Shown here one piece after another: positions 7,428 through 61,527 of a stretch of 64,000 bases of DNA (the stretch's first letter is position 1; each line of letters begins with the position of its first letter). The notes beneath the pieces were generated by a model, which was not told the DNA's origin, searched no databases, and worked only from the letters and a program-made list of their open reading frames with translations. This DNA comes from Escherichia phage vB_EcoM-RPN187: the sequence record OL770074.2; one strand, 5' to 3'. Both the position numbers and the translations under genes were made by a program.

Positions 7428-7432
7428 CAACT

Positions 7433-7852: not shown

Positions 7853-7861
7853 AATAATTCC

Positions 7862-8317: not shown

Positions 8318-8347
8318 AATTTTTCTCTCTTTGTTTAAGTTGAATTC

Positions 8348-8377
8348 ATTATACTCCATCCATCCATGGATGTAAAC
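8348..8377 (-). promoter_or_regulatory. early promoter: -35 GTTTAC, 18-nt spacer containing CCATGG palindrome, -10 TATAAT
   Basis: minus-strand read upstream of 7862..8317. Confidence 0.55.
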
Positions 8378-8382
8378 TGGTT

Positions 8383-9060: not shown

Positions 9061-9069
9061 AATTTTCTC

Positions 9070-10383
9070 TCAAATAAAATGGACGTCAAACCGGCCACGA
9101 GTTGTGCCGACATACAATAACTGTTTAGCTAATTCTGAATCGGCATAATGGATACACGGTGTATAAACAAAGGCCGTGTCAACAGACATACCCTGGGCCT
9201 TATGGAAGGTTGATACTGGTAGTGCCTTCACCTTAGTGAACATACGTTTAGCATCCCAGAATTCGCTCCATGGAGCTTTACCACCTTTATTCCAAAATTT
9301 GTATGTTTCTGCGGCCTTAGCCAAAAACAAATTGAATTTATAAAGCTCTTCTTCAGAAGAAATAACCTTTATATCTTCGCGGATGTATTCTTCATCATCC
9401 CCATATGTTTCTACTGTAAGATTCCAGTATCGTATCATATATTCGCCTGAAACACCACGTGCTTTAACGAATGTAGACGTTTCTACAGCATCTCGAATAC
9501 GAACGAATTGGCCGTTATTGAAAAGCATTTCGGTCATATTTTTACCATCTAGCTTATATGTCTTAGTAAATGGCTCTTGTAGAACAATGACTTCGTCTTT
9601 AATAAATGGTTTTTCTGTTTCAAGAAGTTTTCGGCGAATAATTGAATTTAACTTGTCCACCGACTTATTTGTGAATGCCATCATTCGATTTTCGAAAAGG
9701 TCTTCAGGAGTTTTAACGACGTTAAAATAGTTCATCATATACGATTTAAGGTCTGTATATCCGTGAACACCATGTCCATCAACTACTTTATCGTAAATCC
9801 ATTTGCCATTACGAATATCAGTCGCAACATCAATAATTGGTGCATTGCTACGTTTAACTTCTGTAAGGTTGCATTGCACGAAGTCTTTGTGAGTGAAGAA
9901 AGGACTTAGATACGCAGTTGATTCGCCTGGGTCTACCGGACGAATCTGGCATCGGTCGCCGATTCCAATTACTGTACACCATTTAGGGATACTAGCTAAC
10001 ATTATTTTAAACAGAGAACGGTCGCACATTGACGCTTCATCAAATAACAGTACACGGCACAAGGCTAAGTCTGGAACCTTTTTCTGTTCAAACAATACGT
10101 TTTCTTCGTATGTAGTTGGGTTGATTTTAAGAATGCTATGAATAGTCGATGCTTCTTGACCCGCAAGTTTGCTTAGAACCTTTTTAGCAGCATGTGTAGG
10201 GGCTGCTAAAATAATACCTGATTCTCCAGAAGAAATAAGGGCTTCAACGATGAATCTAGTAAGGGTTGTTTTACCTGTACCAGCAGGCCCATTAATAGTT
10301 ACGTGATGTTTCTTTTCTTTAATAGCGTTCATAACAACGTTGAAGGCGTTTTTCTGGCCTTCAGTCAAATCATCAAATGTCAT
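9070..10383 (-). CDS. dda: Dda DNA helicase (SF1)
   Basis: 437 aa; Walker A GPAGTGKTT; T4 Dda size and position. Confidence 0.9.
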   Translation of the reverse strand: MTFDDLTEGQKNAFNVVMNAIKEKKHHVTINGPAGTGKTTLTRFIVEALISSGESGIILAAPTHAAKKVLSKLAGQEASTIHSILKINPTTYEENVLFEQKKVPDLALCRVLLFDEASMCDRSLFKIMLASIPKWCTVIGIGDRCQIRPVDPGESTAYLSPFFTHKDFVQCNLTEVKRSNAPIIDVATDIRNGKWIYDKVVDGHGVHGYTDLKSYMMNYFNVVKTPEDLFENRMMAFTNKSVDKLNSIIRRKLLETEKPFIKDEVIVLQEPFTKTYKLDGKNMTEMLFNNGQFVRIRDAVETSTFVKARGVSGEYMIRYWNLTVETYGDDEEYIREDIKVISSEEELYKFNLFLAKAAETYKFWNKGGKAPWSEFWDAKRMFTKVKALPVSTFHKAQGMSVDTAFVYTPCIHYADSELAKQLLYVGTTRGRFDVHFI

Positions 10384-10693: not shown

Positions 10694-11440
10694 TTAACCT
10701 TTAATCAGTTGGAATAATGATGCGCTAAGTGGTAAGCCGCGTTTCAATTTTAATTTACCAATGAAACCGATCTTTTCAAAACGTTGCAGACCTTGGATAA
10801 CTTTATCATATGTATCGAAAAGCGATTCAGCGTCAGTTAATTTAGTTTTAGTTTTCCAGTCAGAGCCTTTAAGAAGAACGTTGAGTTTAGTAAGTTCATG
10901 GCCTTCTGCTTGATGTGAGCCATTAATGCGTGCTTTCAAAGCAACAATTCTAAGTTTAGATTCGTTAGATAAGGGTTGATTTTTCATCATGTTCGCCATA
11001 TGCTTAACACGATTTTCACGTTTTGCTCGGATTTTTAAAATAGTGCCATAAACCTTTTTAATTTGGGCCCATTTCTTCTCGTCGAGATTAAGTTTCTCTA
11101 CTTTACGGGCAGAAGGATTAGCGATACGTCTTGCAATGGCATCACGTTTCTCAATAAGTTCTTCTAATGTTAAATCAGAACGAGCCGTGTTATATTTTTT
11201 CTTAACTGGGATAACATTACCTTTAATGTAGCCGATATCGTTATTAAAACGTTCTAAGGATAATTTCTCACCTTCAACAGAGTTATTGAAAGATTCACCT
11301 GAGTAAGCGCAGACCTTTTGATCAAGAATGTTTTTAAGGTAATTAAAATCTAAGTTAAAATCCTTAGAGCGTCTCTTTGCAGAAGCTCTAGTGTGGTCAA
11401 GACGACGATTGATTTTGTTAATTTTATTATTTGATAACAT
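10694..11440 (-). CDS. srd: Srd-like protein (assigned by synteny only)
   Basis: 248 aa basic protein between dda.1 and modA as in T4. Confidence 0.45.
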   Translation of the reverse strand: MLSNNKINKINRRLDHTRASAKRRSKDFNLDFNYLKNILDQKVCAYSGESFNNSVEGEKLSLERFNNDIGYIKGNVIPVKKKYNTARSDLTLEELIEKRDAIARRIANPSARKVEKLNLDEKKWAQIKKVYGTILKIRAKRENRVKHMANMMKNQPLSNESKLRIVALKARINGSHQAEGHELTKLNVLLKGSDWKTKTKLTDAESLFDTYDKVIQGLQRFEKIGFIGKLKLKRGLPLSASLFQLIKG

Positions 11441-19204: not shown

Positions 19205-19518
19205 ATTTCCTCGCAAAATGCCCATTCAGCGTGATAAACTGTAGCACCTTTAGTATTATTCATTTGAACTACGTCTACCGGAGAAATTACTCGATAGAGA
19301 CGTGGTTCACCTCCATAAGAGCGTGCTGCTCGTCCTGCATAAATCTTTGCTAAACCGATATCTTCAGTAAAGAATACACGATCCAAGTTTTTCTTACGTC
19401 CTGTTTCAGACAGAACTCCTGTTTCCTCAGGAGGACAAAGCATGTTTTCGATGTTAGCTGAACTACTTGAACCGTGATAAAAAATCTTAAATTCTGCTTT
19501 ACAATCGATGGTTTTCAT
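19201..19518 (-). CDS. hypothetical protein
   Basis: 105 aa, ATG, SD GGAG inside cassette stem. Confidence 0.5.
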   Translation of the reverse strand: MKTIDCKAEFKIFYHGSSSSANIENMLCPPEETGVLSETGRKKNLDRVFFTEDIGLAKIYAGRAARSYGGEPRLYRVISPVDVVQMNNTKGATVYHAEWAFCEEI

Positions 19519-19544
19519 TTTGTTCTCCAGTAGTTGATAGGTCT

Positions 19545-19573
19545 ATAATAACACAACTACTGGAGAAGTAAAC
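19545..19573 (-). promoter_or_regulatory. early promoter cassette: -35 GTTTAC, 17 nt, -10 TATTAT, flanked by 12-bp perfect inverted repeat containing the SD
   Basis: arms ctccagtagttg 19525-19536 and caactactggag 19554-19565. Confidence 0.6.
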
Positions 19574-19948
19574 TTAAAAATGTAATTTAGATATATCTGC
19601 GTTGATTTCGTTTTGGTTTGCGTCATATGCAATTAAACGAACCGCTTTAGATGGGTCATTCAATGCATAGAAATGATGGAACATTGCTCGAACGATATCA
19701 CCATTTACGAGTTTTACCTGGATAGGAGAACCTTTTTCGAGTTGGAAATGTTCATAAGCTTTGATGGTTCGCAGATAATCAAGTTTTTGATTTCCGGCTC
19801 CAACAATTTGTACGATACGTTTGCCCATGTTTTCCATACGAGATACAATAGTTTTAGGAGCAAGAATAACGTAGGTTGCCAGCGGAGAAACTACTTCAAC
19901 AGTTGTGTTTTCGGTGATTGCAGTAAAAATTGCTTGAGACATATTCAT
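19574..19948 (-). CDS. hypothetical protein
   Basis: 124 aa, ATG, SD GAGGAAAA. Confidence 0.5.
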   Translation of the reverse strand: MNMSQAIFTAITENTTVEVVSPLATYVILAPKTIVSRMENMGKRIVQIVGAGNQKLDYLRTIKAYEHFQLEKGSPIQVKLVNGDIVRAMFHHFYALNDPSKAVRLIAYDANQNEINADISKLHF

Positions 19949-44035: not shown

Positions 44036-44498
44036 GTTTCCACACCCCATCGGTATTTGACCAAAGTCGCTGATTATCTGATCCTCGCCACAGTTTTTTG
44101 GTCGGAAGATTTTTCTCATACTTCCCATCAATAATAACATCAACATATTTAAGCATTTCTAGTTGTTTAATATCTTCAAACTTATATCCTGTCCACAACC
44201 AAATGCTTTTATTGGGATAAAGATTTTTTACTGTTTGAACGATGCAATGAACAACATCTCGGTTATCAGGATAGAGAGGGTCTCCTCCAGTTATAGTTAA
44301 TCCTTCTATATAATCGTTATTCAAACATTCAATTAATTGCTCTAGTGTTTCACCCGTAAATGGAATACCATTTCTAGCGTTCCATGTTGATTTATTATAA
44401 CACCCCTCGCATTTATGCAAACAACCTGTAACGAAAAGAACGACCCTGCAACCAGGGCCATTCACAAAATCGCAAGGATAAAATCTATCATAATTCAT
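44028..44498 (-). CDS. nrdG: anaerobic ribonucleotide reductase activating protein NrdG (radical SAM)
   Basis: 156 aa; CDFVNGPGCRVVLFVTGCLHKCEGC motif; ATGA overlap with nrdD. Confidence 0.9.
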   Translation of the reverse strand: MNYDRFYPCDFVNGPGCRVVLFVTGCLHKCEGCYNKSTWNARNGIPFTGETLEQLIECLNNDYIEGLTITGGDPLYPDNRDVVHCIVQTVKNLYPNKSIWLWTGYKFEDIKQLEMLKYVDVIIDGKYEKNLPTKKLWRGSDNQRLWSNTDGVWKHD

Positions 44499-46312
44499 TG
44501 GTGTTTAACCCTATGCATGATTTCTTTATTTTTGCCGAGATTAAATCCGCGTTCGTTCGGATTTCCAAGATATCCGCATGTTCTTCTTATGGTGTTCATC
44601 TTTTTAGGATCAGTTTCTCCACAAACTGAACAAACAAATCCGTTTTCAGTAGGAGTCATTTCATGGGTACTTCCGCACGTAAAACATTTATCTACTGGCA
44701 TATTAACACCAAAATAATCTAAATGTTGTGCAGCATAATCCCATACAGCCTCAAGACCTTTTAGGTTATTTTTCATATCAGGAAGTTCAACATAAGAAAT
44801 GTGACCACCTGTCGCAATGAAATGATATGGCGCTTCACGAGAAATCTTTTCAAATGGAGTAATATTTTCTTCTACTGAAACATGGAAACTATTAGTGTAC
44901 CAGCCTTTATCAGTAACATCTTTTACACTTCCATATTTTTCTGTATCAAGTTTACAGAAGCGATAACAAAGGTTTTCAGCAGGAGTAGAATACAGGCTAA
45001 AAGCAAAACCGGTTCTTTCAGTCCACTGCTTAAGACGAGCATTCATTTTAGTCAAAATTTCCTGTCCAATATCACGTCCGACAAGAATATTCAATTCGTG
45101 AATACCAACGTATCCTAAAGACACCGAACTTCTACCGTTTTTAAATAACTCAATTATGTCGTCATCAGGTTTAAGACGAACCCCGAATGCACCTTCTTGG
45201 TAAAGAATAGGAGCAACAGTAGCTTTAACTCCTTTTAAGGAACTAATTCTACACATCAATGCTTCAAAACACAAATCCATTCGTTCATTGAACAATTCGG
45301 CAAATTTCTGTTCATTGAACTGTGTTCCAATATAAGAATCTAATGCAATACGAGGAAGATTCAGTGTTACAACGCCAAGATTATTACGTCCATCAAGAAT
45401 TTCATTACCAGTCGAATCTTTCCATACGCTCAAGAAACTGCGGCAACCCATTGGAGAAACAGGAACAGATGAACCGGTGATAGCTTTATTATTCTTAACT
45501 GAAATAATATCAGGATACATTCTTTTGCTTGCGCATTCTAAAGCAAGCTGCTTAATATCATAGTTCGGATCGTCTTTATAAAGATTAACACCCTCTTCAA
45601 CAAACATAACAAGTTTAGGGAAAATAGGAGTTATCCCATCGCGTCCAAGGCCTTTAATACGATTTTTCAGAATTGCTTTCTGAATCATTCGTTCAGTCCA
45701 GTCAGTTCCCGTACCAAACGTAATTGTTACAAAAGGCGTTTGTCCGTTTGAACTAAAGAGAGTATTTACTTCATATTCATACGCTTGGAATGCATCGTAT
45801 ACATCTTTTTCTGTTTTAGATTGGGCATAATTCAACGCATCAGCGATTTGCCATTTTTCTGCATCCTCAATATGTTTTGCATAGGTGCGTTTAACATAAG
45901 GAGAAAGAACTTTATCGACATTCGCAAATGTAGTTCCACCATACTGATGCGAAGCAACCTGTGCAGTAATTTGCGCCATAATTGCAGTAGCAACACCGAT
46001 TGATTTAGGAGTTTCAATCTGTGCATTACCGAGCTTAAATCCGTTCTCAAGCATTCCTTTTAAATCTACTAAACAGCAATTAGTAAACGGAAGAGCAGGG
46101 GAATAATCAATATCGTGCACGTGAATAATTCCGCTTTCATGCGCTTTCATAATAAAAGACGGGACCATATTTTTGGCAATGTGCTTAGACACAATACCAG
46201 CCATAAGGTCCCGTTGAGTTGGAAAAACACGAGAATCTTTATTAGCATTCTCGTTTAAAAGGTCTTTATTAGTTTTATGAATCAATCCTTCAATTTCTTT
46301 TTCAATTGTCAT
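44495..46312 (-). CDS. nrdD: anaerobic ribonucleoside-triphosphate reductase NrdD (glycyl radical enzyme), intron-free
   Basis: 605 aa; C-terminal zinc ribbon CFTCGS...CSVCG and glycyl radical motif RTCGYLG. Confidence 0.9.
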   Translation of the reverse strand: MTIEKEIEGLIHKTNKDLLNENANKDSRVFPTQRDLMAGIVSKHIAKNMVPSFIMKAHESGIIHVHDIDYSPALPFTNCCLVDLKGMLENGFKLGNAQIETPKSIGVATAIMAQITAQVASHQYGGTTFANVDKVLSPYVKRTYAKHIEDAEKWQIADALNYAQSKTEKDVYDAFQAYEYEVNTLFSSNGQTPFVTITFGTGTDWTERMIQKAILKNRIKGLGRDGITPIFPKLVMFVEEGVNLYKDDPNYDIKQLALECASKRMYPDIISVKNNKAITGSSVPVSPMGCRSFLSVWKDSTGNEILDGRNNLGVVTLNLPRIALDSYIGTQFNEQKFAELFNERMDLCFEALMCRISSLKGVKATVAPILYQEGAFGVRLKPDDDIIELFKNGRSSVSLGYVGIHELNILVGRDIGQEILTKMNARLKQWTERTGFAFSLYSTPAENLCYRFCKLDTEKYGSVKDVTDKGWYTNSFHVSVEENITPFEKISREAPYHFIATGGHISYVELPDMKNNLKGLEAVWDYAAQHLDYFGVNMPVDKCFTCGSTHEMTPTENGFVCSVCGETDPKKMNTIRRTCGYLGNPNERGFNLGKNKEIMHRVKHQ

Positions 46313-47543: not shown

Positions 47544-47861
47544 TTAACCCCGGAGTTTATTGAGCTCTTCATAATCAATCCAGGATTCTAGCCCTGACGG
47601 CAGGTCACATTCAATGTTCCACAGAAGCTCTTCGATGGCTTGTAGGCGATTATATTCTTCAACAGTAATAGTAACCATTGTTTCAGGCTTTTTAACCATC
47701 ATGTCATTCATCAGAATGTACAGGTCGTCCCATGTCCATATTTCAGCATCTCGAACTAATGAAGTCGGAATCGAATTTAAAACTTCAATCTTAGTAGGAG
47801 CGTCAGGGCCGAGAAGAGTTGCTACAAATTTATACGCTCTGGCGAAATCAATATCATTCAT
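47544..47861 (-). CDS. hypothetical protein
   Basis: 105 aa, ATGA overlap with nrdC stop. Confidence 0.5.
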   Translation of the reverse strand: MNDIDFARAYKFVATLLGPDAPTKIEVLNSIPTSLVRDAEIWTWDDLYILMNDMMVKKPETMVTITVEEYNRLQAIEELLWNIECDLPSGLESWIDYEELNKLRG

Positions 47862-48121
47862 TTAAAATATTCTCGCAGTTGGTCAAATCCACCAATGTGA
47901 CTTCCGTCAGGAGCAAACACTTGAGGCATAGTCAATCCGACTTGTGATTCACGTCCAAGCTTAACCAGAAGCTCAGCAATTTTCTCATCATCAAAAACAC
48001 CTTTTTCTGGCATAACATTAATGAATTCAAATGGCTGTTTCTTAACAGTCAGCAATCGTTTCGCATTATCGCAATAAATGCATTTATGAATAGTAGAGTC
48101 ATACCCATACACTTTAAACAT
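47858..48121 (-). CDS. nrdC: thioredoxin/glutaredoxin NrdC
   Basis: 87 aa from ATG (MFKVYGYDS...CIYC), nearly identical to recalled T4 NrdC. Confidence 0.85.
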   Translation of the reverse strand: MFKVYGYDSTIHKCIYCDNAKRLLTVKKQPFEFINVMPEKGVFDDEKIAELLVKLGRESQVGLTMPQVFAPDGSHIGGFDQLREYFK

Positions 48122-48527
48122 TATTTTTCCTTTCATCAATTAAATATGCAATGCCAAATACAATACATGTAATAAAACCTGTGATACAGATAGAAACCAA
48201 CAACACTGTACCAAAGAACCAAATCAAGTTATCTTTAGTAGTTTGTTTGATATCCATCTCACGAATTTCTATAGCTATCGTATCACCTTTATTAAGAAGC
48301 GTATAAAACGATGGTGATACATGCCTGTCAAAAACTCGTCCTTGTTCATCTTTATAAACTGCAATAAATTCTAATTTAGAATATTTTCCTGTAGATTGAC
48401 CTGAGATTAATTCTACTACCTCCACAGGAATTACTTTAGTTTCCATGTAAGTATTCTGGCTGTTCCAAATGAATGGAATGATGGCAAAAACTAAAGCTGT
48501 AATAAAACAACGAAGGCTATATCTCAT
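48114..48527 (-). CDS. hypothetical membrane protein
   Basis: 137 aa; N- and C-terminal hydrophobic segments. Confidence 0.5.
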   Translation of the reverse strand: MRYSLRCFITALVFAIIPFIWNSQNTYMETKVIPVEVVELISGQSTGKYSKLEFIAVYKDEQGRVFDRHVSPSFYTLLNKGDTIAIEIREMDIKQTTKDNLIWFFGTVLLVSICITGFITCIVFGIAYLIDERKNNV

Positions 48528-48832
48528 TATAATGTTCTCTCAAATTTGTGGAAGCATTTACGGCATTTCAATTTCAAGTTATCAGTGGTCCAGTTAACCA
48601 GTTGGACTTGGATAGTTCCACATTCCGGACATGGATGTTTTGCTGCCGATTTGGCAGCATTTTCACGTCGTTCAACCATTTTCATTATTTCGTTCCATGC
48701 CGGAGGAACGAACTCTTCTTCACCGTGGATTTTATCTCGCTGAACAAATTCAATCTTTGAACTATCGTCGATAAACTTAACCAAGCTGTGATTAGTGCTC
48801 ATGTCAATATCCTCTAAAAGACGTAGTTTCAT
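48527..48832 (-). CDS. hypothetical zinc-ribbon protein
   Basis: 101 aa; CPECG...CRKC; SD GAGGT. Confidence 0.5.
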   Translation of the reverse strand: MKLRLLEDIDMSTNHSLVKFIDDSSKIEFVQRDKIHGEEEFVPPAWNEIMKMVERRENAAKSAAKHPCPECGTIQVQLVNWTTDNLKLKCRKCFHKFERTL

Positions 48833-49782
48833 TATAAAACCTCAATGGCATTTCGTAAACCATCCGCTTTCGCATTCAGAGCTTTTAACGATTTAGTTTT
48901 TTCTGCAATCTGGGCTTCGACTTCTTTCAGTCGAGATTTGAGATATTCGCGTTCTTCTCTTAAATTATCAACTTTTTCTACTTTAGGTTCTTTAATAGGC
49001 TTAGGTTTATACGTATTAGGGTTCTTCAGTTTAATTAGAATGTGTGAACTGTACAGCATTGAACCATTATCTTCGGTTTCGTCATACATTTCCACTACGT
49101 CCATCATCTCCACCATCGTGCAGAGTTTATAAGACAACGAACGAATAGTTTTGTTGTGCTTATTAATTTCTTTAGAGTTCATGGTGCCTAGATTACGCGA
49201 GTAGTAATAAGGAACCTGGATATCAATTGTCAATGATGCGTTACCATTACCAGTTGGTTTGAATACTGCAGTAACCCAATCTTTAACATGAACTTTATTT
49301 GTACGACCATCGCCACCTGTGAATAATTTACGAGAATGTTTAAAAAGCATATTCACTTGGTTATTGAATTCACAAGCAAATTTATCAGCAAATTTAGTTT
49401 CAGGAATGGTAGATAACCAATCAGCCAAGTAGGTCTTTTTAACATCGTTAACAATAGTAAATTCAACCAAATCGGTTATAGATGTCGCAGTTTTAATGAA
49501 GCTCGGCTTCATAAAGTTTTTAATGTTATCGCGAGCTACAGTAGAAGATAATAAACGAGAACGTTTGAACCATTGAAGCAGTGTCCCTAATGAATGAGAA
49601 TACGCGTTTTGAGTATCTTTACAGATATGATTTTCTTGGCCTGTGTATGTACCAAAATCGCGAAGAATGCCACTTACTACAACTCGGTGTGGAACATCAA
49701 ATCCTAATGATCCAGAAGCACGTTGGGCATGAACGTTAGCGATAAGACCTGCAAAATAATCAATGTAATGTGAACGTGTCAT
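48832..49782 (-). CDS. hypothetical protein with C-terminal coiled coil
   Basis: 316 aa, ATG, SD GAGAGGAAA. Confidence 0.55.
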   Translation of the reverse strand: MTRSHYIDYFAGLIANVHAQRASGSLGFDVPHRVVVSGILRDFGTYTGQENHICKDTQNAYSHSLGTLLQWFKRSRLLSSTVARDNIKNFMKPSFIKTATSITDLVEFTIVNDVKKTYLADWLSTIPETKFADKFACEFNNQVNMLFKHSRKLFTGGDGRTNKVHVKDWVTAVFKPTGNGNASLTIDIQVPYYYSRNLGTMNSKEINKHNKTIRSLSYKLCTMVEMMDVVEMYDETEDNGSMLYSSHILIKLKNPNTYKPKPIKEPKVEKVDNLREEREYLKSRLKEVEAQIAEKTKSLKALNAKADGLRNAIEVL

Positions 49783-49810
49783 AATATTTTCCTCTCGTTA
49801 AGATAGAAAG

Positions 49811-49840
49811 ATTATACTCCAACCATCCTTGGTTGTAAAC
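49811..49840 (-). promoter_or_regulatory. early promoter: -35 GTTTAC, 18-nt spacer with small hairpin, -10 TATAAT
   Basis: minus-strand read; near-identical copy at 50804..50831. Confidence 0.55.
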
Positions 49841-49844
49841 TGAT

Positions 49845-50777
49845 TTATGATTTTAATGCATTCATTGCGTTAAAAAGTTTAGAGTACTGCAACTGGAGCT
49901 TGGTGACTACTTGTTGAGCATCACGAAGCTTAGCTTGTGCTTTGTCAAGTTCAACAGACAGTTGGTCCACAGTGCCTTTGATTTGATTATAATAGTAATC
50001 TTCTGCAGGAAGAAGACCGTTAGAGATTTCCAGTTTAGTCGACGGTGTGCCATTAAACATAACAGGTTGTGCTGAAGCCGCATTAATCTTACCGATAGTC
50101 GGGGCGACAATAATTGACGCTTCGAACGTTGCATTTTCCTTTTTAAGATTTTTATAATATTCAGAGTCTTTGTGCCACCATGGTGCAGGAACCTTTTTAC
50201 CAATAGATACACGAGCCTGGATAGCGATATGGCCCTTATTCTTGATAGGGTCGATAATATTAAGCTCACGAGAATAAATTGCTTTAATCTGGTGGATATT
50301 ATCACCTAACACTTCCAACGCTTGGTGGAATACACGAGCAACGTTATCATTCTTAGGTTTATACGTAAGAGTGAACTCGTTCTCACTGATAACCATGATT
50401 TCTAACTTATCGTAAGTATATTTCAAATGTTTCATGTTAATTGCTTGAGGACGAATACGAGAAGCAATGGCCATCAAATTGTTAAGGTTATTCCGGAACT
50501 GCTTAGCGAAATATTGTCCTTCACCGCCAATACAAAAATTACGAAGTTTCTGTTTGGCTAATAAACGGCTGAACTCACCATTTTTAATGAACTCTTTAAC
50601 GGGTGTGTTAGTAACGCATTCAAATTGAGTAAACTTACGAGAAGTAATCCCATAATATGAACAGATTTCCTCAATCTCTTCAGGAGTCTTTACAGGCATA
50701 CGGATAGGATTAGGACCTGGGGTATATGCGTTCGAGGTAAATTCTTTGATAAGTTCTCTACGTGTAATAGAAGCCAT
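49845..50777 (-). CDS. hypothetical protein with C-terminal coiled coil
   Basis: 310 aa, ATG, SD AGGA. Confidence 0.55.
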   Translation of the reverse strand: MASITRRELIKEFTSNAYTPGPNPIRMPVKTPEEIEEICSYYGITSRKFTQFECVTNTPVKEFIKNGEFSRLLAKQKLRNFCIGGEGQYFAKQFRNNLNNLMAIASRIRPQAINMKHLKYTYDKLEIMVISENEFTLTYKPKNDNVARVFHQALEVLGDNIHQIKAIYSRELNIIDPIKNKGHIAIQARVSIGKKVPAPWWHKDSEYYKNLKKENATFEASIIVAPTIGKINAASAQPVMFNGTPSTKLEISNGLLPAEDYYYNQIKGTVDQLSVELDKAQAKLRDAQQVVTKLQLQYSKLFNAMNALKS

Positions 50778-50803
50778 TTTATATTCCTCATGTTGAAAAA
50801 TTT

Positions 50804-50831
50804 ATTATACTCCAACCATCCTTGGTTGTAC
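50804..50831 (-). promoter_or_regulatory. early promoter, variant -35 GTACAA, -10 TATAAT
   Basis: near-identical to cassette at 49811..49840. Confidence 0.45.
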
Positions 50832-50832
50832 A

Positions 50833-51828
50833 TCATTCCTTAAGAAGTTTTACTACTTGAATAAGATTAGCTCGTTCTGTTTTATTTTTACCGTTTAAGC
50901 CTGCTAATCGTGAGATTTCATCGTCAGTCTGTTGAATAGTTACATTAAGTTCGTTAATCAAAGCTTCAAAGTATTTGATTTGCTCAGCATGTTTTGATTC
51001 AAATTTCTGAACCGGAATAACGTCTTGGTTCAGTTCATCAATAAGGTCTTTAAGAGCATCTTCTTGATTGATATCATATTCAACTTCTTTTATTTCTTCA
51101 ACGAGCTCGTCTTTATATCTAACGTCTTTTAGTCCTGGTGCTGGTCCTGAAATCTCTTCTTTAAGAGTACAAACATATCCAATACGGTATCCAATGCCGT
51201 CTCGCTTGATATCAACTTCGTCAATAAATCCACAATGTTTAAGACCAGAGCCGATTAAGTCAAAATATCCTTGACGACGTCCTTCAAACGTTACACGAAC
51301 TACTAAGACAGTTTTACCTGCAACCTTTTGAAGCTCACATTTATAAAAGTTTGTTGAACCTGAATAACGTGGATGAGTTTTAAAGTTCATCTGACGATCT
51401 AGGCCCATTTGTAAGCGTGCTGATACGGCCATAAAACGTGTTTGGTTCTCGTTAAGATGAGCAACAATCCATTTCAAAGGCATTTTACACTGTTCACGTC
51501 CGAACAAATCAGTACGTCCTAGATTACGCAGGATGTTGTTAGAGTTAATCATCGACAGAACGTTAAGTTTATTCAGCGCGCTGAAGATTCCATCGGCCAT
51601 TGATTTTCCGTAACCTTTACACGCTTTAATAAGCGCTCGCGGTAGATTAGTATAGATTTCAGACGGCATATGAAAATCAAATTTACTAGTCAGTAATTGA
51701 TGAACTTGGATAGCAATTTGCTCATAATTAAGTGCTCTGCGATCATTATGGTCTTTAAACCACACTTTAATCTGTGAAGCACATAAACCGTTAATTTCAT
51801 GTTTTACCGCATCAGATGTAATGCTCAT
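50833..51828 (-). CDS. hypothetical protein with C-terminal coiled coil
   Basis: 331 aa, ATG, SD GAGGAAA. Confidence 0.55.
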   Translation of the reverse strand: MSITSDAVKHEINGLCASQIKVWFKDHNDRRALNYEQIAIQVHQLLTSKFDFHMPSEIYTNLPRALIKACKGYGKSMADGIFSALNKLNVLSMINSNNILRNLGRTDLFGREQCKMPLKWIVAHLNENQTRFMAVSARLQMGLDRQMNFKTHPRYSGSTNFYKCELQKVAGKTVLVVRVTFEGRRQGYFDLIGSGLKHCGFIDEVDIKRDGIGYRIGYVCTLKEEISGPAPGLKDVRYKDELVEEIKEVEYDINQEDALKDLIDELNQDVIPVQKFESKHAEQIKYFEALINELNVTIQQTDDEISRLAGLNGKNKTERANLIQVVKLLKE

Positions 51829-51863
51829 AACTATTTCCTCAGATTGAATTGGAACTCAAAACC

Positions 51864-51889
51864 ATTATAACCCGTCCTTGGGTAAAGCG
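51864..51889 (-). promoter_or_regulatory. possible middle-type promoter (CGCTTTA box 13 nt upstream of -10 TATAAT)
   Basis: box deviates from TGCTT consensus. Confidence 0.3.
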
Positions 51890-51890
51890 T

Positions 51891-52418
51891 TTATGCGTGA
51901 ACCGTCTTTAAACGTTCTTCAAATTTCCGAAGAGTACTAATACGTTCTGCTTTCTGTTTTGTATAGTTTGCAATACGTTCTGAAGTGAGAGCGTATCGTT
52001 CATTTACTGTTTCTTTCATGAAGTCAGGGATTTCACGAGAAGCTTTAATTTCATCAAACTTATCGAGTACTGCCTGGTCTTCAGTGATTAAATTTTCGTA
52101 CATCTCGATATCTTTCTTGATGAAGTCGATATCTTCCTGGGTTACTTTGGATAAACGAGATGCTTTATCCTTTTTGTACTGCTCGTTAGTTTCACGAGAC
52201 CAGAATAATGTACGTTTTTTGTTAGTGTTTTTGTAGACTTCCACAATTCCAACTGAATCAATGATAGCAATCCAATTCCAGCGAGATTTGAAAATCTGAC
52301 CTCCGTCCACGGTAATCTCGTTACCATAAGCAACGTCATTAAAGAACTTGCTTTGTGCTTCAGATTTAAATTTACCGTCGTTATAATTTACCAGGTTGAA
52401 AATATCTTTAGCGTTCAT
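51891..52418 (-). CDS. hypothetical protein
   Basis: 175 aa, ATG, SD GGAGGT. Confidence 0.55.
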   Translation of the reverse strand: MNAKDIFNLVNYNDGKFKSEAQSKFFNDVAYGNEITVDGGQIFKSRWNWIAIIDSVGIVEVYKNTNKKRTLFWSRETNEQYKKDKASRLSKVTQEDIDFIKKDIEMYENLITEDQAVLDKFDEIKASREIPDFMKETVNERYALTSERIANYTKQKAERISTLRKFEERLKTVHA

Positions 52419-52445
52419 GTTTTACCTCCAGTAGTTGATAGGTCT

Positions 52446-52474
52446 ATAATAACACAACCATAGACCTTGTAAAC
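52446..52474 (-). promoter_or_regulatory. early promoter: -35 GTTTAC, 17 nt, -10 TATTAT
   Basis: minus-strand read; contains gataggtctataata core. Confidence 0.55.
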
Positions 52475-52476
52475 AA

Positions 52477-52764
52477 CTAAAAGAAACTTTTTTCGGTATT
52501 TTTTCCACTGAACCAAACAGACTTCGGGACTTTCTGTAATTTTTCAGATTTAAGTTTCTCTTCCTGTTCTTTCTTATATGCATCCTTGTCGTACTGGAAC
52601 AACTCTAGGGCATTCTTTTGTAGACGGTCTAAGGTAATTAAGGCTTTAGTTTTTCCTTTCAAGGAAGAGTCCTGGCGAACCTCCTCGCTATATTGCATCG
52701 TAGAACTAACCATACGATGAGCATACAGTTCGACTGCGGCTTTAATTTTTTGCATAAAATCCAT
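52477..52764 (-). CDS. hypothetical protein
   Basis: 95 aa, ATG, SD GAGGA. Confidence 0.5.
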   Translation of the reverse strand: MDFMQKIKAAVELYAHRMVSSTMQYSEEVRQDSSLKGKTKALITLDRLQKNALELFQYDKDAYKKEQEEKLKSEKLQKVPKSVWFSGKNTEKSFF

Positions 52765-52902
52765 AACATATCCTCTTTGATTTGTACACCATTATTTTTA
52801 AATATTTCTATGCCCTCAGTAGGTTCCTGGTGTCCTTCTTTGAGGTAAGCCATATGATTATTCATCTTTATGGCTTTTGTTACCTCAGAACTTCCTATAA
52901 GC

Positions 52903-53883
52903 TTATTTCAGTAAAGTTACTTCAGAGATTTCTTCCCAACCATCTTTATCAGTTGAAATAAAATCTGCTACATAAAGAGCCGTACGTAATGATACATTGC
53001 GAAGACGAGATACGTTAGCCTTCATCCAGGACAATGCTTTATACGTTTCTGCATCGGTCAGACCACGTTTCTGCATCATGTCAGTAGATAATATTACATC
53101 TTCAACTCGAACCATAATCTCTTCATTAGAGTGTACTCCAAGGTCGAGATACACCGAACGAGATACTAAAGCTTGAAGGTGTGGGGCAAGTTTCGAACCG
53201 CGTTCTAACTCTTTATCGATATCAACGTTTGTAATGAAAACGATAGTACCTTCAAACTCAAATTCTTTATCAATACCCTTATCATCGAGATAAGATGACG
53301 CAGTGCTCCAGCAAACTTTGCGTTTATCTCCAGTATCTAATGCTGCTTTAAGAAGGTTCAAGATGTCCATATCTGAGAATACGTCAACGTCGTCGATTAA
53401 GAGAACGCTGTCTGCATCACGGTTGAGCCAAAGTTGTTCGTAAAGGCCAATACCGGAGATTTTACCATTAATGCTTTTGTATTTGATGAAACCATTATCA
53501 TTAGCGTTATTAAGTGCTTTATCCAGAGAATACGTCTTACCAATACCAGCTGCACCTGAAATAATGAGTGAACGAATTTTGCCATCGATAATGCCATTCG
53601 TCATCATGTTCATTACTTTAAAGCGTTTGTTGATACGAGTTTTCATATCTTCAGTGCTTTCAACAACTGCAACTGGTGATGTCTCAACTCCTTCCATTAC
53701 GATGTCTGATTTGAAGACCCATACTCCACGTTCAGAACCATCAATCATAACGAAAATTTTACCATCACCTAAGTGGGAACATTCAGGATTAAGCTTTGCC
53801 GGGAACCATGTCTTTGTGGCGACATAAGAACCAGAGATTTCGTTATTACGATAGATACCTTTTTTGATTTGAACGTTGAACAT
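52903..53883 (-). CDS. P-loop NTPase (AAA-like) of unknown function
   Basis: Walker A GAAGIGKT, Walker B LLIDDVD; ATG (MFNVQIKKG) with SD GGAG chosen. Confidence 0.55.
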   Translation of the reverse strand: MFNVQIKKGIYRNNEISGSYVATKTWFPAKLNPECSHLGDGKIFVMIDGSERGVWVFKSDIVMEGVETSPVAVVESTEDMKTRINKRFKVMNMMTNGIIDGKIRSLIISGAAGIGKTYSLDKALNNANDNGFIKYKSINGKISGIGLYEQLWLNRDADSVLLIDDVDVFSDMDILNLLKAALDTGDKRKVCWSTASSYLDDKGIDKEFEFEGTIVFITNVDIDKELERGSKLAPHLQALVSRSVYLDLGVHSNEEIMVRVEDVILSTDMMQKRGLTDAETYKALSWMKANVSRLRNVSLRTALYVADFISTDKDGWEEISEVTLLK

Positions 53884-53921
53884 TTTATTCTCCAATTTAC
53901 TCATTTCGTTTCGATAGGTCT

Positions 53922-53950
53922 ATAATAACATGTTTAAAGCAAAAGTAAAC
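53922..53950 (-). promoter_or_regulatory. early promoter: -35 GTTTAC, 17 nt, -10 TATTAT
   Basis: minus-strand read. Confidence 0.55.
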
Positions 53951-53952
53951 AA

Positions 53953-54171
53953 TTATTTGCGACGAGATTTTTTGGTAAGAGGTTGAAAGAACACTGCTTT
54001 ACCTGCTGGGGTTAAGGTGACTCGTAACGCATTACCGATTCCCAAGGATGCTTTAACTAGACCTTTAGCTTTCAGTTCACCGAATGCTTGACGTTGGTCT
54101 GCATCACGAGTGTTAACCATAAGACCTTTATCACCAGCTTCACGAATCATTTCTAACATTTTGGTTTTCAT
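53953..54171 (-). CDS. hypothetical small basic protein (72 aa)
   Basis: ATG (MKTKMLEM) with SD GAGGAG; track N-terminus is translated cassette (IDLSKQEEN). Confidence 0.5.
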   Translation of the reverse strand: MKTKMLEMIREAGDKGLMVNTRDADQRQAFGELKAKGLVKASLGIGNALRVTLTPAGKAVFFQPLTKKSRRK

Positions 54172-54199
54172 TTTGTTCTCCTCTTGTTTTGATAGGTCT

Positions 54200-54227
54200 A
54201 TAATAACATATCCTAAAAGCATGTACA
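54200..54227 (-). promoter_or_regulatory. early promoter, variant -35 TGTACA, -10 TATTAT
   Basis: gataggtctataata core. Confidence 0.45.
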
Positions 54228-54280: not shown

Positions 54281-54562
54281 TTACTTATCACACTTAGCAA
54301 CATAATTAGGCATATCACAGAATACGGAGCGAGTAACTACTCGGCCCTTTGACCATGCTTCAGTTGCTTGTCCGGCTGTGCTATTGATATAGCTTGATCT
54401 AATGTTCTCAATACCCTGAGAATGTGATGCATTTACCGAACCATTAGAAGACCCAGAAGACTGGTTACCACCAGCTCCTGCGCTACCGCTGGCTGCACCC
54501 GTGGTAGCACCGACAGAGAATGCCATCATTACTGCGAATAAACCAATTACTAATTTTTTCAT
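54281..54562 (-). CDS. hypothetical secreted Gly/Ser-rich small protein
   Basis: 93 aa; signal peptide MKKLVIGLFAVMMAFSVGA; SD GAGGT. Confidence 0.5.
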   Translation of the reverse strand: MKKLVIGLFAVMMAFSVGATTGAASGSAGAGGNQSSGSSNGSVNASHSQGIENIRSSYINSTAGQATEAWSKGRVVTRSVFCDMPNYVAKCDK

Positions 54563-54593: not shown

Positions 54594-55583
54594 TTATTTA
54601 TAGTAAGAATTATGATTTTCGAGATAGACTTGTTCAAGGAAGTCATCCCAGAAACTCATATCTACTTTTTGTCGCATACCGTTCTTGGCAGCTTGTTCTG
54701 ACGCATGTTCAACTTGGTCAACGATATCTTCTAGGAATTCTTGTACAGTTTTAAACGTATGTTTACCAAGCTTAACATCGAGAATAAATGGAGCATCCTG
54801 AAGTGGGTAAACCAGGTCGCCGGTTTTATAAATTTCTAATAGTTGAAGTCCACCACGACATGCATGACTCAATGCTTTCCAGTCAATACCTTCGTTAGCT
54901 TCTGCCTTACGAGCACGTTCACCATAGTTCTCTTCCAGTTTAACCAGGATGGCATTGAACTCTTTATTGGTTAATGTGTCTTGGAATTTACGGTCTAACA
55001 GATTATAGAATGTTTGCTTACCTGTTTTCTCGTTTTCAGTTTCAACCCACGAAGCAAATTCACCTACAGGCAGAACATTCTTCATATGTGATAAACGAAT
55101 TACTGCACCATTATCAAAGTATTGTCCCCATTCATTAGAACGTTTAAGGGCTTGACGAAGAACAGCCAGTCGAGAACCCTTGACACCGTATTTAGAAGCT
55201 TGCTTACGGACATACCCTAAATAAGATTTCATGTTAGTGGTATAGAAACGAGACCTGTTATCTTGAATATACTTCCATACATCAGGCAAATCAGATTTAA
55301 CTACTAAACTTGGTGGAGTGTGAAGCATATCTAATGCGACGGTTTCACCATCCGCCGCTAATTTAAAGAAATATTTGAGACTATACAACTCATGGTCCAC
55401 GTCGTCTTTTGTGTTCTTAGAAGATGTGTTATTCGTGTTCTTGCTCATGTGTTCTTTAACGTTACCTGTCAAGATGTCACGAGCATGAGGGACATAAATT
55501 TCTTTAAAATCGACGTCAGATTCAGGAGTAGACGTTCCGTAAAGGTGGCTACCAAAGTAGCCTTTCATAATTGTTTTCATCAT
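54594..55583 (-). CDS. predicted nucleotidyltransferase (Pol-beta/minimal NTase fold)
   Basis: 329 aa; N-terminal GSHLYGTSTPESDVD fits GS-x(9-13)-DxD NTase signature. Confidence 0.55.
   Translation of the reverse strand: MMKTIMKGYFGSHLYGTSTPESDVDFKEIYVPHARDILTGNVKEHMSKNTNNTSSKNTKDDVDHELYSLKYFFKLAADGETVALDMLHTPPSLVVKSDLPDVWKYIQDNRSRFYTTNMKSYLGYVRKQASKYGVKGSRLAVLRQALKRSNEWGQYFDNGAVIRLSHMKNVLPVGEFASWVETENEKTGKQTFYNLLDRKFQDTLTNKEFNAILVKLEENYGERARKAEANEGIDWKALSHACRGGLQLLEIYKTGDLVYPLQDAPFILDVKLGKHTFKTVQEFLEDIVDQVEHASEQAAKNGMRQKVDMSFWDDFLEQVYLENHNSYYK
54595..54602 (-). promoter_or_regulatory. T4-type late promoter box TATAAATA (minus strand), about 33 nt upstream of 54281..54562 start
   Basis: exact match to late promoter consensus; overlaps 3' end of upstream gene. 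Confidence 0.45.
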
Positions 55584-56053
55584 TTAGCCTTATATTCAAG
55601 AGTAGGACAGATTTTTTCTTTACGAGCTTTAAGGTATTCACCTATTAATGATTTCTTACGTTCAATAGGTTCAAGTCCGTTTTTAATTCGTTCTTGGTTT
55701 TGCGCAATGAGCTCAATTTCTTTATAATATTTTCTGTCGTTATATTTGTCTAACAACCAAGACGGACCAATTACCAACCCGGTAGCAATAAAAGCCATGA
55801 CTGCTACCATTAAAATGCCTACACCAATTGAGGCCGGAACTAATGTCCATAGACTGCTAAAAACAAAGAATCTAGTTAAAATTTCCTGGCCAATGATTAC
55901 GACTGCTGCTAAAATAGCAAATCCGATAATTGAAACAGACAATACCGGGATTAACGTTTTCCAAAAATAAGCACACAACGTTTTCGGGCGATTCCATGTA
56001 CTATTGAACGCGGCATAAATTTTAAAGTGCCAAGAGTTTTCATTAATAATCAT
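55580..56053 (-). CDS. hypothetical integral membrane protein (about 3 TM)
   Basis: 157 aa, hydrophobic segments, SD AGGAA. Confidence 0.55.
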   Translation of the reverse strand: MIINENSWHFKIYAAFNSTWNRPKTLCAYFWKTLIPVLSVSIIGFAILAAVVIIGQEILTRFFVFSSLWTLVPASIGVGILMVAVMAFIATGLVIGPSWLLDKYNDRKYYKEIELIAQNQERIKNGLEPIERKKSLIGEYLKARKEKICPTLEYKAK

Positions 56054-58250: not shown

Positions 58251-58258
58251 TATTTATA
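58251..58258 (-). promoter_or_regulatory. T4-type late promoter box TATAAATA (minus strand), about 25 nt upstream of 58014..58226 start
   Basis: exact consensus match; overlaps 3' end of tk. Confidence 0.45.
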
Positions 58259-58835
58259 ACAACCCTGTCAAATCATTCCAATGCTTCCGGCATAATGACA
58301 CATATCTATCAGTATCACCAATTTCAATTTGACTGCCATCTGTAATTGGAAGTCCGTCTTCCGTGACTCTAGCTACCATTGTGGCCTTTTTACCGCAATG
58401 ACAGACACCTTTAAGTTCAACAAGCTTATCGGCAATAGCCATTAATGCTTGAGAACCTTCAAATAGATTACCTTTAAAATCTGTTCGTAGTCCATATGCC
58501 ATTACCGGCACATTGTATACGTCAACAATACGACTAAGTTGATACACCTTTTCAGTAGTTAAGAACTGAGCTTCGTCAACAAATACACAATGAATATCCT
58601 TTTGTGCTGCGGCCCATTTATAGAATTCAAAGATATCCATGTCTTTTGTAATTATATTGGCGTCCTGACGAATACCAATACGAGAGACTATTTCACCTTT
58701 TGAATCGCGAGTATCAATAGCCGGTTTAAGAACTAATACACCCATGCCACGTTCTTTATAGTTATGTGCGGCAGTAAGTAATGAAGCAGACTTACCAGCG
58801 TTCATAGCGGCATATGTAAAAATTAAACTAGCCAT
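58254..58835 (-). CDS. tk: thymidine kinase
   Basis: 193 aa; P-loop AMNAGKS, zinc ribbon CHCGKKA...CRKHW; T4 tk 193 aa. Confidence 0.9.
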   Translation of the reverse strand: MASLIFTYAAMNAGKSASLLTAAHNYKERGMGVLVLKPAIDTRDSKGEIVSRIGIRQDANIITKDMDIFEFYKWAAAQKDIHCVFVDEAQFLTTEKVYQLSRIVDVYNVPVMAYGLRTDFKGNLFEGSQALMAIADKLVELKGVCHCGKKATMVARVTEDGLPITDGSQIEIGDTDRYVSLCRKHWNDLTGLL

Positions 58836-60790: not shown

Positions 60791-61249
60791 CTAGATTTTA
60801 ATCACTGCTTTAGAAGCTTTTCCTGGTAGTCGTTTACTGTTAATAATAGCCATTCTGCATTGAAGAGTCTTCATTTTGAACGCTGGATTTTCGCGACAAA
60901 CTGTAAGTCCTAACCAAAGATTTCCGTCAGTTATTTCTAAACGGCCTGGGCGATATTCGACACCTTCGACAAAATCTTCATCAACATCTGGACGTGCCGG
61001 CATTGATAAAAATTCTGTAACTTCTTTAACATGATTTTTTACTTTACGAAATAATTCAAAAACGTAGTTCTCATCTATTTCTCTCTGGATGGCACGATCT
61101 AAGAGATGTTGAGAATACTTGATATGAAAGCCTGGTAGTCCAAGAGACTTTGCAGCATCTTTTATACCGGCATTTATTTTGCGGAACTCCGTTTCAAAGA
61201 TTCGACGGAGTTTATTACGGCGGATAAAAACGTCAGAATTGATAGTCAT
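60791..61249 (-). CDS. regB: endoribonuclease RegB
   Basis: 152 aa; closely matches recalled T4 RegB (FHIKYSQHLLDRAIQREIDE...RPGRLEITDGNLWLG). Confidence 0.85.
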   Translation of the reverse strand: MTINSDVFIRRNKLRRIFETEFRKINAGIKDAAKSLGLPGFHIKYSQHLLDRAIQREIDENYVFELFRKVKNHVKEVTEFLSMPARPDVDEDFVEGVEYRPGRLEITDGNLWLGLTVCRENPAFKMKTLQCRMAIINSKRLPGKASKAVIKI

Positions 61250-61277
61250 TTTTTATTTCTCCTCTAGTTGACAGGTC

Positions 61278-61306
61278 TATAGTAACACAACTAGAGGAGA
61301 AGTAAA
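61278..61306 (-). promoter_or_regulatory. early promoter cassette: -35 GTTTAC, 17 nt, -10 TACTAT, flanked by 9-bp inverted repeat CTCTAGTTG/CAACTAGAG next to regB SD
   Basis: minus-strand read. Confidence 0.6.
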
Positions 61307-61311
61307 CTACT

Positions 61312-61527
61312 TTATTGATAAAATGGAGTTAAAGCCCAAGATTCTTTAGATACCATATCGGCGAAATGCCTCATCTCTTCGATTTGGCGACGACGCTGGT
61401 CAGCATAGTCTTCTTCGCCTTCTTCCTTACAATCTTCAAGGTCTTCTTCAAGATACTTTAAGTATTCACTACAAATTTTGTTGACCTTTTCTTGAAAGTC
61501 CAATAACCCAGTAATAGTAGAAGCCAT
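61312..61527 (-). CDS. hypothetical small acidic protein
   Basis: 71 aa, TAATG overlap. Confidence 0.5.
   Translation of the reverse strand: MASTITGLLDFQEKVNKICSEYLKYLEEDLEDCKEEGEEDYADQRRRQIEEMRHFADMVSKESWALTPFYQ

Follow-up and report, generated by a model that had tools for sequence, protein, structure and literature searches.

What does the row of large genes between nrdC and tk of Escherichia phage vB_EcoM-RPN187 encode, and might it serve the phage against host defences? The DNA analysed, referred to here as the window, is a 64,000-nucleotide stretch of sequence record OL770074.2, and the six genes in question, called A to F, occupy positions 48832-53883. An initial annotation had described a plastic region of unknown proteins, each with its own promoter, in which anti-defence genes would be expected. 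As judged by sequence comparison, the block is the Mosigvirus counterpart of T4 nrdC.3-nrdC.10, a known kind of accessory block whose genes are named but largely uncharacterised, and it is a mixture of fast-evolving genes (A, B, C and E) and strongly constrained ones (D and F). In size, A, B and C rank near the top of the uncharacterised early genes of T-even phages, and T4 NrdC.5, a relative, is already a proven counter-defence factor.

Identity of the nrdC.3-nrdC.10 block

All six genes lie on the minus strand, flanked by nrdD, gp49, pin and nrdC on one side and by rI and tk on the other: A at 48832-49782 (316 amino acids, aa), B at 49845-50777 (310 aa), C at 50833-51828 (331 aa), D at 51891-52418 (175 aa), E at 52477-52764 (95 aa) and F at 52903-53883 (326 aa). 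Open reading frame (ORF) calls confirmed A, B, C, D and F at the positions initially annotated, including the end at 53883 and the 175-aa protein D, and the placement between nrdC (47858-48139) and tk (58254-58835) was also correct; gene E, within the same interval, had been missed. In a megablast search, the segment at 48.5-54.3 kb matched 661 phage records, of which 141 cover at least 80% of it; the best matches were AV112 and AV113 (98.6% identity over 100% of the query), followed by other Mosigvirus. On this evidence the source phage is a Mosigvirus-like (RB69-like) relative of T4. Homologs of each gene occur in 132 to 1,311 phage genomes, which identifies A-F as real genes, and the alternative that they are non-coding or spurious ORFs was ruled out by this homology together with ratios of nonsynonymous to synonymous substitution rates (dN/dS) below 1.

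The description of these proteins as unknown did not hold, as they correspond to the named T4/RB69 ORFs NrdC.3,.5,.6,.8,.9 and.10, an assignment to the T4/RB69 nrdC.x set that we regard as practically certain; the NrdC names had already been applied by the annotators of RB69 and JS09. Many GenBank records instead carry the label "thioredoxin" on nrdC.x ORFs, including NrdC.3,.5,.6,.8,.10 and.11. None of these proteins has a Pfam thioredoxin match, and we rejected the label as a naming artefact derived from the neighbouring nrdC, thereby correcting a widespread misannotation of the whole block. Searches of PADLOC and NCBIfam with A-F gave no matches, and no functional reports on NrdC.3,.4,.6,.8,.9 or.10 were found in the literature.

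Gene A is a full-length ortholog of T4 NrdC.3 (57% identity, BLASTP) and matches phrog_1435 (expect value, E, 1e-104), a family common to T4 NrdC.3 and NrdC.4 that has the newer Pfam identifier PF26897. It has homologs in 653 phage records, and in its layout, helices at the N-terminus are followed by a small alpha/beta segment and then by a heptad helix at the C-terminus. Among Tequatrovirus-like phages, NrdC.3 falls into two allele classes, approximately 76-78% and 54-57% identical to A, which suggests allelic mosaicism at this locus. Gene C matches phrog_2257 (E 2e-127; newer Pfam identifier PF26899), to which T4 NrdC.6 also belongs, and BLASTP identity to NrdC.6 is 38% over residues 27-152 in the N-terminal part. 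The N-terminal two thirds are common to the two proteins, but C has approximately 55 residues more than the annotated NrdC.6, forming an acidic linker and coiled coil. Its homologs are found in 741 phage records, 151 at 95% identity or more and 587 below 60%.

By profile and position, gene B is a divergent full-length member of the NrdC.5 family. It aligns to all of the Pfam profile DUF7235 (PF23882; positions 1-307 of 307) with 373.4 bits against a cut-off of 30, T4 NrdC.5 scores 420.6 bits against the same profile, and both match phrog_2351, although the two proteins are only 24% identical over 305 aa. B orthologs in RB69 and JS09 are annotated as NrdC.5, and the slot between NrdC.3/.4-type and NrdC.6-type genes is the same in T4, JS09 and dhabil: T4 has the order NrdC.2-NrdC.3-(NrdC.4)-NrdC.5-NrdC.6, JS09 and the source phage share it minus NrdC.4, and dhabil has NrdC.2 followed by NrdC.4-like, NrdC.5-like and NrdC.6-like genes. 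B and T4 NrdC.5 are alike in early-gene context as well, and in a C-terminal coiled coil ending in ...KL.NA.NALK; B is the shorter by 30 aa, the alignment showing large gaps towards the N-terminus and in the centre, and is of an allele type that is confined to Mosigvirus (132 phage records). An exhaustive phmmer search of 1.84 billion representatives returned nothing beyond the cluster of B itself, and a deep alignment of B could therefore not be built.

Identity to T4 across approximately 39 orthologous pairs ranges from 24 to 100%. B (24%), E (30%), C (38%, partial), an NrdC.7-like protein (41%) and A (57%) lie at or near the bottom of this range, and NrdD (98%), NrdC (92%), gp49 (89%), D (82%), NrdC.11 (78%) and F (77%) are conserved. 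In pairwise comparisons with three other Mosigvirus genomes, dN/dS was 0.21-0.42 for B, the highest in the block, 0.24-0.25 for E, 0.15-0.16 for A and 0.12-0.16 for D; for F, dN was 0 in all three comparisons despite a dS of 0.04-0.16.

Kinship and possible role of A, B and C

Pairwise BLASTP among A, B and C gave no matches, and paralogy becomes visible with profiles only. Using hhalign, the A family matched the B family with 87% probability (E 3.8e-6), and expect values were 7e-4 for A against C and 0.08 for B against C. All three matches fall on one helix-linker-helix segment, conserved as "LS..A...L.NF ... F..N...L..A.R"; the rest of the shared layout is a small beta-rich middle, a linker rich in proline and charged residues, and then the C-terminal heptad helix. 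We also compared position-equivalent proteins of approximately 350 aa from Klebsiella phage JD18, Enterobacter phage EnA02 and Salmonella phage STP4-a, which matched the A family at 95.8% (E 6.5e-9, 221 columns) and the B family at 60% (E 8.5e-5, 208 columns). Merged profiles matched the C family at 79-94% (E 1.6e-5 to 1.5e-7, up to 179 columns), the profile combining A, B and the position-equivalent proteins reaching 93.9% (E 1.5e-7, 179 columns). As controls, reversed targets scored at most 20 and column-shuffled targets at most 24, against 40-68 for the real pairs, and unrelated neighbour proteins, the coiled-coil protein D among them, gave probabilities of at most 2.4%. In the joint alignment, the A and B families have an N-terminal M-(x)-TR-x-E-[YL]-I in common, and A, B and C families all have a C-terminal L..AL..LK. 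The C-terminal coiled coils initially noted in A, B and C were borne out by a crude heptad heuristic, which flags residues 267-316 of A, 258-310 of B and 278-311 of C, and also 146-175 of D.

These results lead us, at moderate confidence, to regard A, B and C as distant paralogs within one superfamily that also comprises T4 NrdC.3/.4, NrdC.5 and NrdC.6. Databases keep phrog_1435, phrog_2257 and DUF7235 apart; the profile comparisons suggest that these families belong together, a useful addition alongside the link of B to the anti-Dsr1 family. A word-indexed search with a mixed A/B/C alignment retrieved close A- and C-type sequences only, and searching the PDB with A, B and C, as profiles or as single sequences, yielded only coiled-coil noise. 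An AlphaFold2 model of A, built from a shallow alignment, was of low confidence (predicted local distance difference test, pLDDT, 53), with one terminal helix at 275-315, and was not used for function; a BFVD search with this poor model returned the NrdC.3 ortholog and weak full-length matches to T4-like phage proteins of approximately 350 aa, which are suggestive only.

The functional precedent comes from T4 NrdC.5, which when expressed from a plasmid counteracts the Dsr1 defence, a sirtuin (SIR2) NADase (Srikant et al. 2022, PMC9391042). Two further precedents lie in the same neighbourhood: T4 nrdC.1 inhibits Septu according to the HIDEN-SEQ preprint (bioRxiv 10.1101/2025.11.20.689424), and T6 gp49.2 inhibits OLD (PMC13096335). 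The expectation of anti-defence genes in this interval is therefore backed by published examples, direct only for the family of B; D, E and F are probably not arms-race genes.

On balance, the explanation we consider somewhat probable is that the block is an accessory early one in which A, B and C are inhibitor-type paralogs and D, E and F are separate. A row of accessory genes would be expressed before replication, most of them from an early (sigma-70-type) or middle (MotA-type) cassette of their own. A, B and C would each oligomerise through the coiled coil, and the variable body of each paralog would bind a target of its own in host immunity or host takeover and block it, with B a candidate Dsr1-type inhibitor by analogy with T4 NrdC.5; this mechanism is proposed because a member of the family, T4 NrdC.5, neutralises Dsr1. 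An anti-defence role is a reasonable guess for these proteins by analogy, and that it holds for all of A, B and C has a prospect approaching, if falling slightly short of, even. A broader proposal, in which NrdC.3-.6 and their equivalents of approximately 350 aa in Klebsiella, Salmonella, Enterobacter and Yersinia phages form a tandem superfamily with each paralog tuned to a different immune protein, is rather doubtful; if true, such a tandem arrangement would be the phage's equivalent of a defence island, evolving by duplication and divergence. If A, B and C do belong to a superfamily with NrdC.5, then three to four further candidate inhibitors per phage could be tested against defence-system libraries, with relevance for the host-range engineering of therapeutic T4-like phages.

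Several observations weigh against this explanation. The alignments behind the A, B and C families are shallow (effective number of sequences approximately 2-2.6), the probability of the A-B match varies from 14% to 88% with alignment composition, the merged profiles partly presuppose the conclusion, and the only structure model from these families, that of A, is too poor (pLDDT 53) to confirm a common fold. Gene-wide dN/dS is below 1 everywhere, with no direct signal of positive selection. As regards expression, a generic sigma-70 scan found 36 sites against 36.3 expected from shuffles, that is, no enrichment, and the hairpins in the cassettes of A, B, C and F (described below) fold no better than shuffled sequences. 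The text of the HIDEN-SEQ preprint reports nrdC.1 only, and not nrdC.3,.4,.6,.8 or.10, as an anti-defence hit (10.1101/2025.11.20.689424). With B only 24% identical to the T4 NrdC.5 that was tested, its target may differ, and for A, B and C an anti-defence function would follow from analogy rather than from experiments on the source phage.

In an alternative scenario, A, B and C serve host takeover or regulation early in infection, for example by modulating proteolysis, the nucleoid, the metabolism of the host or the expression of phage genes, and the effect of NrdC.5 on Dsr1 is a special case. Many T4 early accessory genes target host physiology, and Pin, a Lon inhibitor encoded just upstream, has a similar dN/dS of 0.13-0.29; moreover, nrdC.1 is the only anti-defence gene of the block that the HIDEN-SEQ text names, and the retention of A and C in 650-740 genomes suggests a general rather than a host-specific benefit. 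What is known of function in the superfamily, however, is a single anti-defence finding (PMC9391042), the genes are dispensable in laboratory hosts, and divergence between genera is very fast, as is typical of proteins that track variable host targets. We therefore consider general host takeover unlikely as the role of all three, and retain the inhibitor-type explanation as the better account of A, B and C.

The AAA+ ATPase NrdC.10 and the smaller genes D and E

The longest ORF of gene F spans 52903-53904 (333 aa). Because all homologs start at the ATG at 53883, and a GGAG Shine-Dalgarno sequence precedes it, the true start is almost certainly there, seven codons downstream of the start at 53904. 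F is the ortholog of T4 NrdC.10 (phrog_1250), from which it shows essentially no difference, with 77.5% identity, the same length, the same motifs and the same leader with promoter and RegB site. Homologs were found in 1,311 phage records, from Escherichia, Klebsiella, Vibrio, Acinetobacter and Aeromonas phages to RaK2-like jumbo phages, a spread that takes in the Straboviridae and some jumbo phages. F carries both a Walker A (GAAGIGKT) and a Walker B motif (VLLIDDVDVF), each invariant in 11 genera and 83 sequences, and the motifs FITN, SRS and SLRTAL are likewise invariant across 11 genera. In the numbering of the 333-aa ORF, the invariant residues include N226 (FITN, sensor 1), R249 (ALVSRS, a candidate arginine finger) and R307 (SLRTAL, sensor-2-like), roles which were assigned by position.

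An AlphaFold2 model based on the 83-sequence alignment has a pLDDT of 90.1 and a confident AAA+ fold, consisting (in the 326-aa protein) of an N-terminal beta domain (1-64), the AAA+ core (77-250) and a helical lid (253-324); the core has an additional strand-helix-strand ahead of the sensor-1 strand (residues 189-209). Among the matches listed by Foldseek against the PDB there are only AAA+ proteins, from many clades, at E of approximately 1e-5 to 1e-4, and a PDB sequence search returned Cdc6 only, in a Walker-A-centred match with E 0.011. The P-loop ATPase of the initial annotation was thus upheld by the invariant Walker motifs and the modelled fold, and, on motifs and model, F is a genuine AAA+ ATPase that lacks close relatives of characterised function. 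No confident homology to a structural or replication protein that would contradict the initial annotation was found; the likeness of F to AAA+ proteins of replication does not go beyond the generic fold. The label "putative clamp loader" that F bears in some GenBank records is unsupported, in that RFC, the gamma complex and gp44 do not emerge as its closest relatives and an insertion is present ahead of sensor 1.

A role of F as an accessory AAA+ protein of DNA replication or recombination, clamp-loader-like or initiator-like, would make part of the block conserved DNA metabolism rather than an accessory function. Sequence similarity, though weak, points in this direction, with E 1e-4 to 3e-4 for clamp-loader PHROGs and 0.011 for Cdc6, SRS and SLRTAL resemble by inspection the SRC and sensor-2 motifs of clamp loaders, and F is under extreme purifying selection. 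The genomic neighbourhood is also of note: in KVP40 (7989-10325 of the locus extract) and LPCS28 (6604-8996), the NrdC.10 gene adjoins a gene for a topoisomerase II subunit (gp52 or ParC-like), and in Aes012 (469-8975) gp52 and motA lie 4-6 kb upstream of the NrdC.10 homolog, the topoisomerase II subunit gene being approximately 6 kb away; in all three it is far from homologs of A-E, which argues against a single system with A-E and is compatible with a DNA-related role. T4 encodes its own clamp loader, however, and to our knowledge clamp loaders lack, in the established classification of AAA+ proteins, an insertion ahead of sensor 1 such as residues 189-209 of F. Furthermore, T4 nrdC.10 is listed as non-essential in the HIDEN-SEQ supplement, and we consider a replication role quite unlikely.

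It is highly improbable that the entire block forms a single multi-component system, with A, B, C and D serving F as adaptors or substrates: the genes are co-linear on one strand, A, C and D have similar distributions (653-745 records) and AAA+ proteins often use coiled-coil adaptors, but F occurs in about twice as many genomes, homologs of A-E are missing from its vicinity in KVP40, Aes012 and LPCS28, evolutionary rates differ by an order of magnitude, most genes have separate putative promoters, and T4 nrdC.5 alone is sufficient against Dsr1, as reported with the Dsr1 finding cited above.

Gene D is 82% identical to T4 NrdC.8 and belongs to phrog_2274, with homologs in 745 phage records; its N-terminal half is beta-rich and its C-terminal half helical and heptad-like. 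Profile and sequence searches of the PDB with D returned coiled-coil noise and no sequence relative. Gene E matches Pfam DUF7203 (E 8e-24) and is approximately 30-35% identical to T4 NrdC.9. D is well conserved, and D, E and F probably have conserved roles that are dispensable in the laboratory and lie outside any arms race of A, B and C, in keeping with the supplement of the HIDEN-SEQ preprint, in which T4 nrdC.1-nrdC.11 are all non-essential in K-12 (10.1101/2025.11.20.689424). NrdC.10, highly constrained and widespread, stands apart from the arms-race genes and merits a functional study of its own.

Promoter cassettes, plasticity and known counterparts

Promoter-like sites precede A, B, C, D and F, and the initial claim that each gene has its own promoter therefore stands for these genes, as putative promoters, but not for E, which has no convincing one. 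A, D and F have sites of the TTTACW-N17-TAYWAT type (TTTACA-17-TATAAT, TTTACA-16-TATTAT and TTTACT-16/17-TATTAT, respectively), and B and a small upstream gene, G, have a TGTACA variant. Two repeated cassettes can be distinguished. The class-1 cassette, ahead of D, F and G, consists of (G)TTTAC or GTGTACA, N16-17 and TATTAT, followed by AGACCTATC; its 15-mer TATTATAGACCTATC is found in the window in 5 exact and 3 near copies, and with up to 3 mismatches allowed there are 15 matches against 2.9 expected. The class-2 26-mer ACAACCAAGGATGGTTGGAGTATAAT is identical ahead of A and B and has 3 copies in all, against 0 expected; the third, at 8348-8373, has compensatory changes in the arms of its hairpin. 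The corresponding T4 genes carry these cassette types too, but the class-1 tail in T4 has a form of its own, TACTATACAACTATC, and such genome-specific tails suggest homogenisation within each genome.

The individual sites, all on the minus strand, are as follows. Ahead of A (49783-49844), GTTTACA and TATAAT match 11 of 12 positions of the sigma-70 consensus and enclose a spacer with a 6-bp hairpin (CAACCA/TGGTTG); this type of cassette is also found at T4 nrdC.4. Ahead of B (50778-50832), TGTACA-N17-TATAAT includes the class-2 26-mer. The site ahead of C (51829-51890) is of middle type, with GCTTTA, 13 nucleotides (nt) containing ACCC/GGGT, and TATAAT; GCTTTA resembles the MotA box, the consensus of which is TGCTT (PMC4122927), and in T4 the same element follows the nrdC.8 stop codon, ahead of nrdC.7. 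Folding z-scores are -0.7 for the 6-bp stem of A, -2.2 for the 6-bp stem of B and +1.4 for C, and these statistics do not support the spacer hairpins of A, B and C as terminators. The early cassette ahead of D (52419-52476) has GTTTACA-N16-TATTAT and then AGACCTATC, and its spacer AGGTCTAT pairs with sequence after the -10 element in an 11-bp stem (minimum free energy, MFE, -13.6 kcal/mol, z -1.6). The promoter of T4 nrdC.8 is homologous to that of D, and RegB cuts the nrdC.8 leader moderately (PMC1702504).

Between F and E, a spacer of 138 nt (52765-52902, minus strand) holds a truncated class-1 cassette (TTTAAAAATAATGGTGTACA...GGATATGTT) fused to the ATG of E; compared with the cassette before G, no convincing -10 element or own promoter was seen in this gap, and it seems that the 3' part of the cassette has been replaced by the start codon (GGATATGTT-ATG). 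A 68-aa ORF in another frame overlaps the gap. The early cassette and leader of F (53884-53952, minus strand) has GTTTAC-N16/17-TATTAT, then AGACCTATC, and the translation start region of F, GGAGAATAAAATG, is a perfect match to the RegB/S1 site, for which the consensus is GGAGRAYARAA and the T4 form GGAGAAUAAAA (PMC1702504). Sites of this kind, perfect or nearly so, lie in the leaders of both F and G (GGAGAAUAAAA and GGAGAACAAAA), which fits early mRNAs that are shut off by RegB. Elsewhere in the window, two class-1 cassettes on the minus strand (19515-19580 and 61248-61315) have a -35/-10 spacer complementary to the downstream 5' untranslated region, including the Shine-Dalgarno sequence. The pairs are CTCCAGTAGTT/AACTACTGGAG and CTCCTCTAGTT/AACTAGAGGAG, between which the changes are compensatory, and the stems have MFE values of -21.5 and -22.6 kcal/mol (z -4.5 and -5.1). 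Such stems would sequester the ribosome-binding site in read-through transcripts, but not in those from the local promoter.

The plasticity initially ascribed to the region is evident in the fast divergence of A, B, C and E, in content between nrdC and nrdC.10 that differs between genera, and in small ORFs that vary within Mosigvirus; it does not apply to D and F, nor to gene order, which for A-F is kept in the 141 near-identical records and for their orthologs in T4, and which is stable in Mosigvirus and Tequatrovirus. Gene G (53953-54171, minus strand), a 72-aa ORF of phrog_6001, lies between two identical class-1 cassettes; it is present in the source phage, S143_2 and moha and precisely absent in JS09, which lacks G and the -35 region of F exactly between two class-1 copies (the second at 54191-54205). 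In moha, the class-2 cassette before B contains 22 nt duplicated from the 3' end of B, and between this cassette and C there is an inserted ORF for a 66-aa membrane protein. These two comparisons imply that the cassettes act as recombination points, and plasticity would arise in two ways, through the gain or loss of small genes as repeated promoter cassettes recombine and through the rapid divergence of A, B, C and E. A hydrophobic ORF of approximately 66-71 aa (VOG8838) lies between the NrdC.6-like and NrdC.5-like genes of moha (5199-5399 of the locus extract) and dhabil (10930-11145), and is absent from the source phage, JS09 and T4; in moha, the 22-nt copy from gene B and a class-2 cassette come after it. 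Upstream of the G promoter there is a strong GC hairpin, GGGGACC-UUCG-GGUCCCU.

Further differences from T4 surround the block. The NrdC.7-like membrane protein directly adjoins nrdC (48114-48527) instead of lying between nrdC.6 and nrdC.8, and BLASTP comparison with the T4 nrdC region found no counterpart of NrdC.4 in the source phage. A 93-aa protein at 54281-54562 (minus strand), with a signal-peptide-like N-terminus and a body rich in Ser, Gly and Asn, belongs to phrog_2243 and has a weak YbgS-like match (E 7e-4); unlike its early-gene neighbours, it is preceded by a T4 late-promoter motif, TATAAATA. The next large gene is NrdC.11, an RlaP-type nucleotidyltransferase at 54594-55583 (78% identity to T4), whose start is overlapped by the stop of a 157-aa multi-pass membrane protein (55580-56053) in the slot of the T4 homing endonuclease gene mobD. 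BLASTP comparison found no counterparts of the T4 homing endonucleases mobC and mobD. On the other side, nrdD (44495-46312) is a single uninterrupted ORF of 605 aa, 98% identical to T4 NrdD in the aligned part; T4 nrdD, by contrast, is split by a group I intron that carries I-TevII.

Among systems of known function, T4 nrdC.1 (anti-Septu) and T6 gp49.2 (anti-OLD) have a common setting with the block: they lie in the same early region from nrdD to tk and have the same laboratory dispensability as A-F, but no sequence relationship to them, and BLASTP against the T4 nrdC region detected no NrdC.1 homolog in the source phage. The cassettes have their counterpart in PeSL, short intergenic repeats of T4-type phages in which a TTTACW-N17-TAYWAT promoter is combined with a stem-loop that can lie between or over the -35 and -10 boxes (Arbiol 2010, PMC2839356; Comeau 2014, PMC4122927). 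In the cassettes of A, B, C and F the stem-loops are short and fold no better than shuffled sequence, and the C cassette is MotA-type; A, D and F have the PeSL type of promoter, and the cassettes resemble PeSL (PMC2839356; PMC4122927) in their placement before accessory genes, in their repetition and in their coincidence with the breakpoints of gene gain and loss.

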